From Elusimicrobiota bacterium (GTDB taxonomy: Bacteria > Elusimicrobiota > Elusimicrobia > UBA1565 > JACRDR01): a DNA stretch of 39,711 nt. The position numbers are program-made. Of this stretch, positions 24,001-30,000 are shown piece by piece. Numbering within the stretch: the first letter of the stretch is position 1; every line of letters starts with the position of its first letter. The stretch covers positions 1 through 39,711 of the forward strand of contig JBGFSC010000041.1 in assembly GCA_041694815.1 (NCBI GenBank), in the 5' to 3' direction.

Positions 24001-27000
24001 TCGAAATAGAGGAGGCCGACGACGCGATTTCCTTGGCGACGAAGCTGGGCTCCCTAGGGGTCCGCTGCCTCGAGGAAAACCTGGCGTCCTTCGACTCGGG
24101 TATCCGCCGCCGGCCACAACAAGGGGAGCCGAGCCTGGCGCCGAAGCTCACGCGCGAGCACGCGCGCGTGAGCTTCCGGATGCCGGCCGTCGCTTTTCAT
24201 AATCGCGTGCGCGGATTGCGGGCGGGCCCGTGCGCCTTTCTGGGCGCCGGACTCTCGGTGCGCAAGACGCTGCCGGAAAGCCCGGAGCAGGAAGGCGAGC
24301 CCGGCCGCGTGCTTCGCGTTGAAAAAAACAAGGGAATTTTGATACAATGTCAGCCCGGAACGCTTTGGATCGTTGAGGTCCAGCCTCAAGGGAAAAAGCC
24401 GATACCAGCGGCGGATTTTCTAAATGGTCTCCGCCTAAAGCCCGGTCACATTTTGCCGGATTAACGGCAGTCTTTTCGTTTTATGGAAAACCAAGCAGAG
24501 CCCCAGGCGGGCGCCGGTTCGGAGCTGCGCCCCTGGGAGGCGGCGGCCCTCTCGGCGCTTGTCGTGGTGTTCGGTTTCTTCGCGTATCGCTGGGCGAGCG
24601 AGGGCTTAGTCCATGCCCGGAAGGTCCAGATCGTCCCCGATCTCCGCGGCAAGCCCGTCTCGGCCGCGCTGGACCTGCTTTCTCCGATCAACCTGGCCTT
24701 GCGCAAGGAAGGCGAGGAATTCAACGGCAGCGTGCCGATCGGCTCGATTCTCCGGCAAACCCCCTCCCCGGGTACCAAGGTACGCGAGGGGAAGACCCTG
24801 AGGGTCGTCATCAGCCAGGGAGGTGAGACGGTGTTCACGCCCGACATCGTGGGGCTCCCCTTGCGCAACGCGGAGATGCTGCTGCGCCAGAGCCAGCTGA
24901 CCCTGGGCGAGGTGTCGGAATCCTACTCCCTGCGCTTGGAAAAGGGCATGGTGATGTCCCAGGACCCGAAATCCGAGTCCAGCGTCGAGCGCAACGCCGC
25001 CGTGCGCGTCGCCGTTTCGGGCGGCCCTCCTCCCGCGGGCATCGTGCTGATGCCGGATTTTTTGCGCAAGAATCTTTCGGACGCCACGAACTGGGCGGCT
25101 TCCTCCGGTTTTAAGGTCTCGGTCCAAAAGGATCCCAACTCCATATTCCCATACGGCGTCGTCCTGGCCCAGGATCCCCCGCCGGACGCCGTCCTGGGCT
25201 CCGGCTCGAAGATCCAGGTGACCATCAGCGGCAAGTCGCAGCCGGCCGGCGCGGATCCGACGATGAAAAGCGTGCGCTACGAGGTCTCGCAGGGGTCGGC
25301 CGACAGCTCGGTGCGCATCGTGGTCATGGACCAGTACGGGGAGCGCGAGATTTTCAACGGGGTGCGCCCCCCGGGCAGCAAGATCGACCTCCAGGTCCCC
25401 GACAGCGGGACGAAGCTGCGCATGAAGGTGTTCCTCAACGGCATACTCGTCGAGGAGCGCGACCTATGACGGGCAGCTCCTGTGTCCGGGCGCGGGTCCT
25501 CAACGGCAGCTTTTACGCGCCTCGGGCGCGTGGCTCGGCGCAAACGACCGCGCCGAGCGCGGGATTTTCGCACTATCCGGGGAAGCAATCGTGACCGAGA
25601 GCCGACGACCCATTCCCGACGGCCGGGTGCGCGTCGTGCCTTCGCTGCTCGCCGCCGATTTCGCCGATCTGGCGGGCGCGCTGCGCTCGGTGGAAGCGGA
25701 GACCGACTGGGTTTCCGTCGACATCATGGACGGGCATTTCGTGCCGAACCTGAGCTTCGGGCCCGACGCGGTCTCGGCGCTGCGCCGGCGAAGCCGCGTG
25801 GCTCTCGACGCGCATCTCATGGTGGAGCATCCCGAGTGCTTCGCGCCCGTCTTCGCCGACGCCGGCGCCGATTTCGTCGTCGGCCATGTGGAGGCGCTGC
25901 GCAACCCTGATGATTTCTTTCGGCCCTTGGAGTCTCGCGGCGTCGGCAGGGGCTTGGGCCTTAAGCCCGCGACCCCGGCCTCGGCGCTCTTGGCGCTGCT
26001 CGACCGCATCGACCTGGCTTTGGTCATGACCGTGGAGCCGGGTTTCGGCGGGCAGGAGTTCCTTCTCGAGATGACGGCCAAGGTGCGCCAGCTGCGCGAG
26101 GCCATCGACCGCTCCGGGCGCCCGGTGTGGCTGATGGTTGACGGGGGCATCAACGAGGAGACGGCGGCGGCGGCGGCTCTCGCCGGAGCCGACGCGCTGG
26201 TGGCGGGTAGCGCGGTGTTTCGAGACAGCGATCCGGCGGCCGCGCTGCGGCGTCTGCGCGAAAGGGCGCAGGCAAATTTCAAGGGCTTGCCTAAGGAGGG
26301 CACAAAAACATGGCGGTAGTCATCCGGTTGCAGCGGACGGGAAAGACGAAGCAGGCGTACTATCGGGTCGTGGCCATCGAGAAGGCTCGAGGGGCCCACG
26401 GGAGGCCGTTGGAGGTGCTGGGCTCCTACGACCCGCGCGGCGAGAAGGCCAAGGACAAGATCCGGCTGGACCTCGCGCGCTGGGAGCATTGGATCAAGAA
26501 CGGGGCCAAGGCGTCGGAGACGGCGAGGTCGCTGGCGAAGCTCGCCTCAAAGGCCGAGACGGCCGTCGCCTAGGGAAAAGCGATGAAAGAGCTCGTGTTG
26601 ACGCTGGCCAAGAACTTGGTTGACAAGCCGGAGCAGGTGGAAGTGACGCAGACCGAGAACGCGGGGACCCTGGTCCTGACGGTGCGAGTGGCCGAGGAGG
26701 ATAAGGGCAAGATCATCGGCAAGCAGGGAAAGGTGATCAAGGCGATCCGGGCCGTCATAGCCGCCGCCGCCGAGAAAGCCGAGCAAAAGGTGTCCGTGGA
26801 CCTAGAATGAGCCGGAATAAGACGCCACCCGCGCCGCGAGCGGCTTTGCGTATCGACGTCGTCACCTTGTTTCCCGAGATGTTCGAGGGGCCGATGGGGC
26901 ATAGCATCGTCGGCCGCGCCCGCCGCAACGGGATATTGGAGCTCGGCTTCGTCAATCCGCGGGATTTCGCCCGGGATGCCCGCAGGACCGTCGACGACCG

Positions 27001-30000
27001 GCCTTACGGCGGCGGTCCCGGCATGGTGCTGCAGCCGCAGCCGGTCTATGACGCCATCGGCAGCGTGCGCCGAAGGTACTCTACCGTGGTCTACCTGAGC
27101 CCGCAGGGGCGGCGCTTCGATCAGGCCGCCGCCTCCCGGCTCGCCGCGGCAAGACACCTGATCCTTTTGTGCGGGCATTACGAGGGCGTCGATGAGCGCG
27201 TGCTGCGCTACGTCGACGAGGAGATATCGATCGGAGATTACGTCCTGACCGGCGGTGAGCTGCCGGCGATGGTCGTAGCCGACGCCGTCACCCGGCTCTT
27301 GCCGGGCGCCTTGGGCAAGGACTGCTCCATCGTGGAGGAATCCTTCGCCGGGGCCCTCTTGGAGCATCCGCAATTCACGCGGCCGCCTCTGTGGCGGCGC
27401 CGGCAGGTGCCCGAGGTGCTGCTCAGCGGCGATCACGCCCGGATCGCGGAGTGGAGAAGGCGCCAATCCGTGGAGGCGACGCGCCGCAAGAGGCCGGATT
27501 TACTGACAATCAAGAACACTCAGAGGAGCGTCGTATCGCCGTAGTCGCGCCCTGTAGCGTTATAAAAGGAGAAAAAATCATGTCCGCCGAATCATCGCCC
27601 CAGACGAGCAAGAAATCATTCCCGCCCTTTAAACCCGGAGACACCGTCCGCGTCCACCTGAAGGTGGTCGAAGGCGAGAGCGAGCGCATCCAGGTCTTCG
27701 AGGGAACGGTGATCCGGCGCCGGGGAACGGGAGTCTCCGAGTCCTTCATCGTGCGCAAGATCTCCTTCGGGGTCGGAGTCGAGCGGACCTTCCCGCTGTA
27801 CTCCAAGCGCATCGAGAAGATCGAGATCGCGCGCACGGGCCGGGTGCGCCGCTCGAGGCTCTACTACCTGCGCAACCTCACCGGCAAGTCCGCGAGGCTC
27901 GACGACGAGGGCCGGGAGGCGCCCAAGCCGGCGGTGTCTGCGTCGGCCAAGCCGGGGGAAGCGGGCATCAAGACCCTTTCGACGCTAGCCTCTTAAGCTC
28001 GCGCGAGTGGCCGGGCGGCTTTGGCGTTTCGACCAGGCGCTGCGCCGCGAACGCGGCCGTCCGACGCTCATTGGAGTCGACGAGGCGGGTCGCGGGCCTC
28101 TCGCCGGTCCCGTCGTCGCCGCCGCGGTAGTGCTGCCCTCCGGTGGCTCGCGGGAGTTGGCCGGGGTGCGCGACAGCAAAACCTTGAGCGCCGCCCAGCG
28201 CGAGCGGCTCTTCTCGGCGATACGCCGCAATGCCCTGCAGGTTGCGGTGGGCTGGGCTTTAAGCGAGGAGATAGATCGAATCAACATACTGCAGGCCTCG
28301 CTGTTGGCGATGCGTAGGGCGCTCGCCCGCTTAAGGTTCCAAGAGCCGTCACCCGCGTCGGCTCTGCTCATCGTCGACGGCAATCGCCGCATCCCCGAGG
28401 TCCCGCTGGCCCAAGAGGCGATTATCGGCGGCGATCGGGACTCCTTGAGCATCGCCAGCGCCGGCATCGTCGCCAAGGTCGTTCGCGACCGCTGGATGAA
28501 CCGGCTCGACGGTCTTTTCCCGGGCTATGGTTTCGCCAGGCATAAGGGATATGGGACCCCGGAGCACTTGGGGGCCTTAAGGCGCCTGGGCCCGAGCAGG
28601 ATCCACCGCCGCAGTTTCGCCCCGGTGCTGGCCGCGCCCAGACAACTCTTGGAGGAGGGCATCCCCGCGTGAGCCTCGCGCGACAGGCCTTAGGCCAGGA
28701 CGGGGAGGACCGGGCCGCGCGGCTGCTGCGCGAGGCGGGATGCGATATCCTCGAGCGTGGTTTTAAGACCCCCTTCGGGGAGATCGACCTCATCGCGCGC
28801 GACGGCCCGACCCTGGTGTTTGTGGAGGTCAAGACCCGCCGCGGCTATCGGTTCGGCTCGCCGGAGGAAGCGGTCGGAACGCGCAAGCAGGCCCATATGG
28901 CCAAGGCCGCCCTGATGTACCTGCAGCGGTGCAAGATGAGCGGCGCGCCGGTGCGTTTCGACGTGATCTCCGTATCGCCGCAGGGCCTGCGGCACATTCG
29001 GGACGCGTTCAGCGTTCCGGGATGTGCCTGGTGAAATGCCCGGCCTGCGGTTTCGAATCGCCCGAGGGGGCGCAGTGGTGCGATTTCTGCAAGGAGCCCT
29101 TCAACAAGAAGCCGAAACCGGCCCCTGCGCCTGCCGTTGCGTCCCCCCCGTTGAAGCTGCCCCCGCCGCCGCTGCCCTCCGCTTCCCAAGATGTCGCTGC
29201 CGGTATCCCGCCGGAGTTCGCGGGACTCGACACCGGCGGCAAAATACCAGTCGCCCCGCCCTGGTTTAAGTACGCCGGACTGGCCCTATTGGGGATATGG
29301 ATACTCTGCATGGTCTGGATGGCCGGGTTTTATATGGCCAAGGCCAACTCCCCCGCCGCTAAAACCAGTAATTGAGGCCCGCTTTATACGCCATGGCCTC
29401 GGCGGACCCGGCCGCGAACGCGCTGCCGAGCTCGAAGCCGTGATAGCGCAGCTCGAAGAAGGAGCTAATGTTGCGTCCGAGGAAGGCCTCCAGGCCCGCC
29501 CCGGTCGTCACCGCCCATGAGCTGCTGGCCGGTTTCGAGCTGCCGTGCGCGTCCCGGACCTCGCCGAAGAAACGCTGCCACCCTCCCCCTCCCAACAGGT
29601 ACGGCGTCCAGCTCCGGCCCGAAAAGAGATTGAGGCGCATCAAGGCCACCAGAGCGATGTCGGAGGCGCTGGAGCTCGATCCCGCGCCGTAGGGCGGGTG
29701 GTAAAAATTGGATTCGCCGACGGCCTTCTTCCCGAAGCGGAATACGCTCCCCTCGATGCCGAGGGCCATCCAATCGAGCGGGTAGTGGAAATAATGTAAG
29801 GAAAGGACGGGGCCTGGCTTGGCCACCCGGTTGAAGCGGTTGGTCGTAGTCGGCACCGCCCATCCCAGGCCCAGGCCCAGCACGCTTACGTCCTCGCTGA
29901 AGCTCATCGCGGGTGCGGCGGCGCGCGAGGACCCCGCCGCGGCCAAGAGCAGCAGCGAGAGGACCCCCGCCTTAATCGAGGTTCCTGAGGCAGGCCTCGG

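Follow-up and report, generated by a model that had tools for sequence, protein, structure and literature searches.

Complete loss of the signal recognition particle pathway in all sampled Elusimicrobiota, with the canonical Sec machinery retained

The genome of an Elusimicrobiota bacterium (GCA_041694815.1, G000) encodes neither of the two signal recognition particle (SRP) pathway GTPases, Ffh and FtsY, nor an SRP RNA, and keeps SecY, SecA, and YidC, being an SRP-less bacterium of the known kind. The loss extends to every sampled member of the phylum, and a ribosome-tethering tail of YidC is absent. On balance, we favor the view that the whole pathway has truly been lost and that most likely no dedicated substitute took its place, ribosomes reaching SecYEG/YidC directly. 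The window analyzed here is the contig JBGFSC010000041.1 at its full length of 39,711 nucleotides, which carries the rpsP operon.

The G000 assembly is a 54-contig draft of 2.77 Mb (97.8% complete), in which 48 tRNA genes serve all 20 amino acids. An earlier note on this DNA had claimed the joint lack of Ffh, FtsY, and SRP RNA, and this was borne out by Pfam and Rfam models, our own HMMs, a motif scan, an nhmmer profile, and a domain-IV descriptor; the absence rests on seven independent searches. At E ≤ 10, the SRP54-type GTPase domain (PF00448) yields nothing beyond sub-threshold P-loop matches (best 18.2 bits). Seven of these are annotated, as GspE/PilT ATPases, a MeaB-glyoxalase fusion, and adenylate kinase, and were rejected as SRP GTPases. 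The methionine-rich M domain of Ffh (PF02978) has no candidate in the genome. Custom HMMs made from 34 Ffh and 7 FtsY sequences, run with --max against 31,135 six-frame ORFs with no pre-filter, detect no Ffh or FtsY (best E 0.12 and 0.056, respectively). The GTPase motif G1...DTAGR occurs in none of 12,704 G000 ORFs; among 80 control loci, it picks up Ffh or FtsY in 35. The related FlhF (TIGR03499) is also missing from the genome.

For the RNA, the model RF00169 has no match at E ≤ 10 among the 150 of 243 candidates that were scored. The earlier note cautioned that a very aberrant RNA could escape the Rfam models; an nhmmer profile made from six SRP RNAs and a strict domain-IV (helix 8) descriptor likewise find no SRP RNA in G000, the descriptor matching 6/6 control RNAs and no site in this genome. 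The best nhmmer match, C22:50032-50081 (E 0.085), outscored a spiked-in real SRP RNA (L149) in one leave-one-out run. It was rejected as an SRP RNA, since it lies within a 525-aa ORF, reads AGGAGC where all six control RNAs have AGCA[AG]C, and has no SRP-family cmscan match at E ≤ 10.

Few proteins are as well conserved as the SRP GTPases, and even the distant paralogue FlhF is detected at 145-161 bits wherever it is present. In 14 named control genomes, PF00448 and PF02978 were each found in all 14 and RF00169 in 12 to 13. At least two SRP GTPase matches were obtained in 205 of 206 positive genomes of another phylum, with a single match in the remaining one; incompleteness of metagenome-assembled genomes (MAGs) therefore almost never hides both genes. 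The SRP RNA was recovered in four of five SRP-positive MAGs when only the best candidates were scored in the same way. It tracks the proteins, being present in G514 and absent in G315, G516, G314, and G546.

The phylum was sampled with 301 species-level genomes from 98 genera, most of them MAGs and 234 of them at least 90% complete. No Ffh or FtsY was found in any of the 301. PF00448 matches a single genome, G121, and the protein is FlhF (TIGR03499, 223 bits against a cut-off of 174), whose gene is flanked by those for FlhA and a MinD/FlhG-like ATPase. PF02978 matches none of the 301 at E ≤ 0.001, and RF00169 and RF01854 each match none of 150 genomes (strict filters, best 12-25 candidates per genome scored). 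Nor was any SRP found in an isolate genome that includes a 1.93-Mb contig and was reached by way of a locus with the title Elusimicrobium simillimum Sma112, all candidates having been scored, and a closed genome is reported as SRP-negative in print. The claim that the loss holds for every genome sampled stands, including the order of G000, whose genomes reach 4.6 Mb. Of 101 genomes, 10 keep RimM; they belong to deep families likewise without SRP, indicating that the SRP was lost earlier than RimM. The loss is old and happened before any of the sampled Elusimicrobiota families diverged.

The genes in the window run in the order def-fmt-PASTA-rpe-rpsP-KH-trmD-rplS-rnhB-yraN, all on the + strand (Table 1). 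In many Bacillota, ffh occupies the position held here by rpe. The overlap of rpe and rpsP leaves no space between them for ffh or a remnant of it. The KH gene is directly followed by trmD, so that the operon is also without rimM, and a genome-wide search found no RimM in G000. The PASTA protein shows a hydrophobic segment at its N-terminus in translation. The operon does start without ffh, as the earlier note observed; its premise that ffh usually heads this operon applies to some lineages only, and the 6 kb upstream of rpsP are also free of ffh in seven genomes from other phyla that do have an SRP. Nothing is therefore proved by the gene order on its own, and it is the genome-wide absence that counts.

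Table 1. Genes and junctions around rpsP in contig JBGFSC010000041.1
Feature	Position	Strand	Evidence
def, peptide deformylase; upstream neighbor	23044-23556	+	PF01327, 161 bits
fmt, methionyl-tRNA formyltransferase; upstream neighbor	23547-24464	+	PF00551 + PF02911
PASTA protein, 3 PASTA domains, membrane-anchored, without kinase domain	24483-25469	+	PF03793, 130 bits, 3 stretches
rpe, ribulose-phosphate 3-epimerase	25591-26319	+	PF00834, 215 bits
rpe stop / rpsP start, 10-nt overlap	26310-26319	+	ORF coordinates
rpsP, ribosomal protein bS16	26310-26573	+	PF00886, 62 bits
KH-domain protein, KhpA type	26583-26810	+	PF13083, 80 bits
trmD; overlaps KH gene by 4 nt	26807-27544	+	PF01746, 203 bits
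rplS, ribosomal protein bL19	27580-27996	+	PF01245, 153 bits
rnhB; downstream neighbor	28007-28672	+	PF01351, 130 bits
yraN (UPF0102); downstream neighbor	28669-29034	+	PF02021, 99 bits

The earlier note implied that Elusimicrobiota are unique in this respect, which does not hold, since the same triple absence is seen in other groups. In Omnitrophota, an SRP is found in none, or at most one, of 201 genomes, and FlhF occurs in seven. In another phylum, 45 of the 251 genomes sampled form a clade that is likewise SRP-less and whose genomes reach 5.8 Mb. Among 31 Dehalococcoidales-type relatives of G315, 22 are SRP-less, SRP GTPases being found in the other 9; SecY was detected in 30 and YidC in 29 of the 31. 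A bolder and tentative reading is that not all free-living bacteria possess an SRP and that four or more wholesale losses took place (in all sampled Elusimicrobiota, in essentially all sampled Omnitrophota, in the 45-genome clade, and in most of the Dehalococcoidales-type group), and that in Elusimicrobiota an unrecognized factor or an altered contact between ribosome and translocon may perform co-translational targeting.

Draft assembly, binning, or the search pipeline could be suspected of having produced an artifactual absence because of the fragmentation of G000, the prevalence of MAGs, and the first-look filter that preceded scoring. We regard this as extremely unlikely, considering the high completeness of most genomes, the negative isolate and closed genomes, the near-constant detection of both genes where an SRP exists, and the finding of SecY and YidC in nearly all of the Dehalococcoidales-type genomes, of which so few yield SRP GTPases; moreover, our own HMMs were run on all six-frame ORFs of G000 with no pre-filter. 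It is also very improbable that an SRP is present with its proteins and RNA too divergent for all models. The partial scoring of RNA candidates in G000 and the weak match on C22 leave some room for such divergence, but the match has the wrong motif and lies within an ORF, and the domain-IV descriptor and the M-domain search returned nothing. Proteins so conserved that FlhF is still recognized would have to be missed. The spacing G1...DTxG[RK] occurs in no six-frame ORF, and in 301 genomes each of three unlinked components would need to have diverged past recognition. This reading is already close to refuted.

The retained machinery looks ordinary. In G000, the full-length SecY model is covered (372-374 bits), SecA has all five Pfam domains including SEC-C, and uL23 (99 aa) keeps its loop region. 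Trigger factor is present, and YidC is a single copy (one PF02096 match) with the periplasmic domain kept; our own searches confirmed SecY, SecA, trigger factor, and a YidC without a basic tail, all of which the earlier note had listed. Hydropathy, crudely counted, puts 319 of 2,336 ORFs at two or more TM-like windows and 159 at four or more. The Pfam score of the G000 SecY is 374 bits, compared with 290-315 bits for Dehalococcoidales-type SecYs. Harris & Goldman 2021 describe the SecY branches of Elusimicrobia as long, which hints at adaptation. The ordinary appearance of SecA, SecY, and YidC fits both a lack of any need for adaptation and an unseen factor.

Tethering of ribosomes by a long basic C-terminal tail of the insertase, as in Streptococcus mutans YidC2 and in Oxa1 of mitochondria, which lost the SRP, is a known way of living without it. 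For Elusimicrobiota such a tether is barely credible. Only about eight residues follow the last hydrophobic segment of the single G000 YidC, and at five Elusimicrobiota loci 14-25 residues follow the last detected hydrophobic window, with a net charge of 0 to +3; these tails are no longer or more basic than those of Desulfobacterota YidCs. In the Dehalococcoidales-type group, all 20 of 20 SRP-less genomes have YidC C-terminal stretches of 32-148 residues with net charges of +7 to +13, the lengths coming from a crude cut that still includes membrane segments in several rows. However, the long tails are shared by SRP-positive genomes of that group (net charge +2 to +11 in seven usable rows), so that the tail is at most a pre-adaptation there. 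It is possible, though rather doubtful, that in Elusimicrobiota the SRP was replaced by a dedicated factor without homology to it, either protein or RNA, which recognizes TM segments of nascent chains where these leave the ribosome and passes them on to SecYEG/YidC. The normal size of the membrane proteome, the lack of both a YidC tail and a second YidC, and the stability of the loss over 98 genera, which suggests a low cost, are in line with such a factor, and takeover by other proteins is proposed by Harris & Goldman 2021. Against it, no candidate emerged: the near-matches to PF00448 are ordinary ATPases and GTPases, and screening membrane proteins for long basic C-tails gave nothing convincing. 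Furthermore, three or more other groups contain SRP-less lineages, and these would require either a substitute apiece or a common one.

In the favored reading, direct access without a dedicated substitute, ribosome-nascent-chain complexes or their mRNAs would arrive at SecYEG/YidC by themselves, and ribosome-binding SecA might assist docking. Slow translation would give a long time window, making the kinetic "head start" provided by the SRP dispensable. A normal set of polytopic inner-membrane proteins is still made, and canonical SecYEG, SecA, a single YidC, and trigger factor are kept. Two reports lend this reading plausibility: E. coli that has lost its SRP altogether stays viable when suppressors slow down the initiation of translation (Zhao et al. 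2021, PMC7844537), and mRNAs bound to the membrane are translated there, with insertion of the products independent of SRP (Sarmah et al. 2023, PMC10066597). Counting against it, the genome sizes in the order of G000 and in the 45-genome clade do not allow all SRP-less bacteria to be taken for tiny, slow cells.

Entire bacterial phyla, free-living and equipped with hundreds of polytopic membrane proteins, manage without SRP, and they include cultured members, Elusimicrobium and Dehalococcoides, according to record titles and print. They provide a natural system for studying the minimal machinery of co-translational membrane targeting, the benefit that the SRP gives a cell, and whether the gap is filled by SecA, slow translation, mRNA localization, or a new factor. 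Ffh, FtsY, and PF02978 serve as "universal" markers for completeness and phylogenomics, yet they are systematically missing in these clades.

The loss of the RNA, presented as new by the earlier note, is already in print: Matelska 2016 states that Elusimicrobium minutum, of the same phylum, and Dehalococcoides spp. are without SRP RNA and protein parts, the same joint absence as in G000. That statement is one sentence on single genomes in a paper on endosymbionts, whereas the present sample covers many genera with non-reduced genomes. Harris & Goldman 2021 deal with the same phylum, the same proteins, and the same takeover idea; they report loss of the SRP proteins "in some" Elusimicrobia and retrieval of one Ffh and one FtsY accession labeled Elusimicrobia, and leave the RNA outside the study. 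Here, in contrast, none of the 301 genomes has either protein, and the sole SRP54-type protein is FlhF. Seymour et al. 2023 (PMC10066038; Methods, quality control) note PF02978 as "present in only one genome" of Omnitrophota, in agreement with our count; it is treated as a CheckM nuisance, "SRP" appears nowhere in the main text, and FtsY and the RNA are unaddressed. We did not find in print the scale of the loss or the same triple absence in Omnitrophota, the 45-genome clade, and the 22 Dehalococcoidales-type relatives.

The extreme genome reduction and host restriction of SRP-less endosymbionts are not seen in G000, considering its size, tRNA set, and many polytopic ORFs. S. mutans, for which SRP loss is described as non-lethal in PMC7844537, and mitochondria insert membrane proteins without SRP as Elusimicrobiota do, but they have a tail or a receptor (Mba1/mL45 are named in PMC8321541), and the Elusimicrobiota YidC has neither such a tail nor a paralogue. 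The E. coli suppressors and mRNA targeting resemble the favored route in that a standard Sec/YidC machinery inserts proteins without SRP if initiation is slowed or mRNAs are located at the membrane. These are laboratory mutants or single substrates, whereas the Elusimicrobiota state is natural, ancient, and clade-wide.

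On the + strand, the region studied and its flanks carry def, fmt, a gene for a PASTA protein, rpe, rpsP, a gene for a KhpA-type KH protein, trmD, rplS, rnhB and yraN in this order, and every gene is well over its cut-off in the Pfam search. The start of rpsP and the stop of rpe share 10 nt, and 4 nt are common to the KH gene and trmD, so that the operon has no ffh ahead of it, no rimM within it and no room for remnants. This Pfam-confirmed gene map bears out the earlier note, according to which the rpsP operon is not headed by ffh. The PASTA protein lacks a kinase domain; the PASTA kinase PrkC of Bacillus presumably sits in the same def-fmt...rpe neighbourhood. 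SRP RNA is not found by cmscan of the entire window (E ≤ 0.1), which gives only one tRNA and some long hairpins. On both strands, unrelated miRNA-precursor models match three long stretches that form hairpins, with scores below gathering. In the whole 54-contig draft genome, ARAGORN identifies 48 tRNA genes, with all 20 amino acids represented; a tmRNA gene is not found by this program and may fall in an assembly gap.

Coordinates of the features discussed in the text
Feature	Location	Strand	Remark
Stand-alone membrane-anchored protein, three PASTA domains	window 24483-25469	+	between fmt and rpe
Overlapping KH gene and trmD	window 26583-27544	+	
Hairpin-forming stretch	window 34732-34828	both	
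Hairpin-forming stretch	window 11403-11454	both	looks like a copy of the same element as 11820-11871
Hairpin-forming stretch	window 11820-11871	both	looks like a copy of the same element as 11403-11454
Best nhmmer match of the SRP RNA profile	C22:50032-50081 (contig of this genome)		
Ffh-like piece of G497	L109:1501-1743	-	Omnitrophota-titled genome
RF00169 match of G434	L112:1501-1572		Omnitrophota-titled genome

The genome holding the window comprises 2,770,893 bases (63% G+C, no N) and is 97.8% complete. PF00448, the model of the SRP54-type GTPase, gives 21 matches at E ≤ 10, all of which are below the cut-off and confined to the model's P-loop end (best 18.2 bits). Pfam annotation of seven of these 21 identifies five as type II/IV secretion ATPases, one as a MeaB-glyoxalase fusion and one as adenylate kinase, and on this basis the near-matches were rejected as cryptic SRP GTPases. 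PF02978, the Ffh M domain, has zero candidates. HMMs of our own were built from ORFs located upstream of trmD in other phyla (34 for Ffh, 7 for FtsY); searched without a pre-filter (--max) against the 31,135 six-frame ORFs with 50 aa or more, they reach best E values of 0.12 and 0.056, respectively. The series G1 ... DTAGR ... TKxD, which we take to be the SRP-GTPase motif, occurs in none of the 12,704 ORFs with 100 aa or more. In the control for this motif, an Ffh- or FtsY-sized ORF is matched in 35 of 80 loci.

The SRP RNA model RF00169 finds no match at E ≤ 10 in the genome, with the best 150 of 243 candidates scored. The best match of an nhmmer profile made from six SRP RNAs (E 0.085) is a 50-nt stretch of contig C22 resembling the 5′ half of SRP RNA domain IV. 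We rejected it as an SRP RNA, since it is part of a 525-aa ORF that has no Pfam family and since it reads AGGAGC at the position occupied by AGCA[AG]C in each of the six real RNAs. A full cmscan of the stretch (E ≤ 10) gives no SRP-family match, and we judge it to be a chance match. A relaxed hairpin descriptor (AGG, 2-5 bp stem, 4-6 nt loop, AGCA) is uninformative with its 547 matches, so a strict domain-IV descriptor (CAGG, 3-bp stem, GNRA loop, 3-bp stem, AGCA[AG]C) was used instead, together with a looser AGG...AGCA form. This descriptor has zero sites on either strand of the genome and is positive for 6/6 control RNAs. Ffh, FtsY and SRP RNA are all missing from this genome, as had been claimed, with Pfam, Rfam, our own HMMs, the motif, nhmmer and the descriptor all negative.

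A three-protein tree (RpsP, TrmD and RplS; 39 rows, quick method) places the window within Elusimicrobiota, which form their own clade (SH-aLRT 91). The nearest TrmD loci, from Elusimicrobia or Elusimicrobiota by title, are 62-69% identical to the TrmD of the window. Among 301 genomes of the phylum (98 genera; 234 genomes at least 90% complete), PF00448 matches at E ≤ 1e-5 in only one, G121. The protein of G121 is FlhF, with 223 bits on the FlhF model TIGR03499 (cut-off 174) versus 96-108 bits on ffh and ftsY; its neighbours are the FlhA C-terminus on one side and a MinD/FlhG-like ATPase on the other. Ffh and FtsY are therefore found in 0 of 301 genomes. PF02978 is also absent from all 301, and RF00169 and the second SRP RNA model, RF01854, each match in none of 150 genomes at E ≤ 0.01 (148 of high quality). 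Five further genomes reached via loci have neither a PF00448 nor an RF00169 match, including an isolate (Elusimicrobium simillimum strain Sma112 by title; a 1.93-Mb contig); all RNA candidates were scored in the three smaller ones, the isolate among them. The claim that the loss holds for every sampled genome of the phylum agrees with these counts, which are drawn from larger groups, contain related and thus non-independent genomes and, in the large-scale RNA searches, were obtained with strict filters.

Outside the phylum, the genomes with TrmD loci split cleanly into those with two PF00448 matches and those with none. Two matches each are present in Verrucomicrobiae-, Kiritimatiellia-, Sedimentisphaerales-, Lentisphaerae-, Victivallaceae-, Opitutia-, Chloroflexota- (two genomes) and Deltaproteobacteria-titled genomes. 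PF00448 is absent from five of five Omnitrophota-titled genomes, two small 'Planctomycetia'-titled MAGs, two Dehalococcoidales-titled MAGs, G578 and G314, the last being a member of an SRP-less clade in another phylum. The phylum identities of G301 (Omnitrophota), G314 and G315 (with Dehalococcoidales-type relatives) follow record titles and the small tree, in which the 'Planctomycetia'-titled SRP-less MAGs group with Omnitrophota (91) and G314 groups with Kiritimatiellia/Victivallales-titled loci (98).

In the Omnitrophota-titled phylum, PF00448 matches in 12 of 201 genomes, always singly: seven are FlhF (208-242 bits), one is MeaB, one is dTMP-kinase-like and two reach ~26 bits. The twelfth, in G497, is an 80-residue piece with an internal stop at the end of a 2.8-kb contig. 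This piece, the sole Ffh-like trace in the 201 genomes, has the look of a true Ffh G domain and could come from a stray contig or from a gene in decay. RF00169 matches in one of 150 genomes of this phylum (G434; 45.3 bits) at the end of a short contig. G434 is not among the 12 PF00448 positives and is possibly outside that 201-genome sample. No PF00448 match is present in 28 of 31 relatives of G314; the other three have one FlhF-like protein each (TIGR03499 165-167 bits, just below the cut-off; ftsY 78-87 bits), and 45 of 251 genomes of the G314 phylum have no match. The relatives of G315 have none in 22, two in 8 and a fragment in 1 of 31 genomes. The SecY tree of this Dehalococcoidales-type group is poorly resolved: the free tree has five SRP state changes, and one SRP-positive clade is not rejected (AU p 0.36).

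Two readings would deny the loss itself, namely that the absence is an artefact or that SRP is present in a cryptic form. The 14 named control genomes are all positive for PF00448 and PF02978, 12-13 of them for RF00169 and 9 for RF01854. In the G314 phylum, 206 of 251 genomes are positive for PF00448, 205 with at least two matches and one with a single match, which indicates that the loss of so much as one gene of the pair to draft quality is very rare. Of the 31 genomes of the Dehalococcoidales-type group, 30 are positive for SecY and 29 for YidC, and only 9 for SRP GTPases. The worry that SRP RNA was hidden among the unscored candidates of our genome is answered by its recovery in four of five SRP-positive MAGs, where the best 150 of 219-724 candidates were scored. 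The three components also co-vary: all are present in G514, with 70.9 bits for the RNA, and G315, G516, G314 and G546 have none. We regard an artefact as highly improbable, and a cryptic SRP, for which the P-loop near-matches were the GTPase candidates, can hardly be expected. The pathway is very probably gone from this genome and from the phylum.

The loss of the RNA is not new to print, contrary to what had been assumed: the absence of proteins and RNA has already been published for one member of the phylum, Elusimicrobium minutum (Matelska 2016). This genome is a further case of the known SRP-less bacteria. In the cited part of Harris & Goldman 2021 (PMC7987157), SRP homologues are described as few and SecY branches as long in Elusimicrobia, and further study is urged. 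Seymour et al. make no biological comment on marker absence, and 'SRP' occurs 0 times in their main text (PMC10066038). A full-text search for SRP with Elusimicrobia, Elusimicrobium, Endomicrobi-, Omnitrophota and Dehalococcoid- gives nothing further in openly readable main texts. We did not find in print the phylum-wide scale of the loss, the phylum-scale absence in Omnitrophota, read as SRP loss, or the SRP-less clade of the G314 phylum (45/251 genomes).

The loss is an old one, and nothing is unusual about the Sec/YidC parts. SecY has ~445 aa after trimming of an overlapping upstream frame and matches the full Pfam model (372-374 bits). None of the five Pfam domains of SecA is missing, and the SEC-C zinc motif at its C-terminus is among them. 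The single-copy YidC has a periplasmic domain, and its chain ends ~8 residues past the last hydrophobic segment. Trigger factor is present, and uL23 (99 aa) keeps the loop region. The reported retention of SecY, SecA, trigger factor and a YidC without a basic tail is thus confirmed. By crude hydropathy, 319 of 2,336 non-overlapping ORFs have at least two TM-like windows and 159 have at least four, so the demand for membrane targeting is undiminished. RimM is also missing: PF01782 has no match in the genome, and an HMM of 35 presumed RimM ORFs reaches a best E of 0.66. RimM is missing from 91 of 101 genomes of the phylum (bacterial controls, 10/10 positive), and the ten that keep it all belong to a few deep families already without SRP, so RimM was lost later than SRP.

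A tether of ribosomes by YidC would be one way of targeting. In the Dehalococcoidales-type relatives of G315 (YidC loci L158-L185), YidC has a long C-tail, of net charge +7 to +13 in 20 of 20 SRP-less genomes by a crude TM cut-off, resembling the ribosome-binding tails of YidC2/Oxa1. Tail length does not separate SRP-less from SRP-positive genomes there, since most of the latter also have long, basic tails (one row of the comparison, G538, is a wrong ORF), and the tail is at most a pre-adaptation in that group. Five Elusimicrobiota YidC loci extend 14-25 residues past the last detected hydrophobic window with a net charge of 0 to +3, and Desulfobacterota YidCs have similar tails. The short, near-neutral ends and the single copy exclude the YidC2/Oxa1 solution for Elusimicrobiota, and a YidC tether has very little probability. 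An unknown substitute factor is a possible but rather unlikely answer. Eight membrane proteins of the genome passed a filter for ribosome-receptor candidates with long basic C-tails; being Arg-rich short ORFs or ORFs with poorly supported TM segments, none is convincing.

Given the loss, we lean slightly towards targeting that needs no dedicated particle. In this scheme, nascent chains or mRNAs would come into direct contact with SecYEG/YidC, SecA would be the likely ribosome-associated helper, and slow translation would leave a generous time window for targeting. According to the cited portions of two studies on Escherichia coli, slower translation initiation rescues an SRP deletion (PMC7844537), and SRP is bypassed by membrane-bound mRNAs (PMC10066597). 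The proposed SRP-free route agrees with both of these results.
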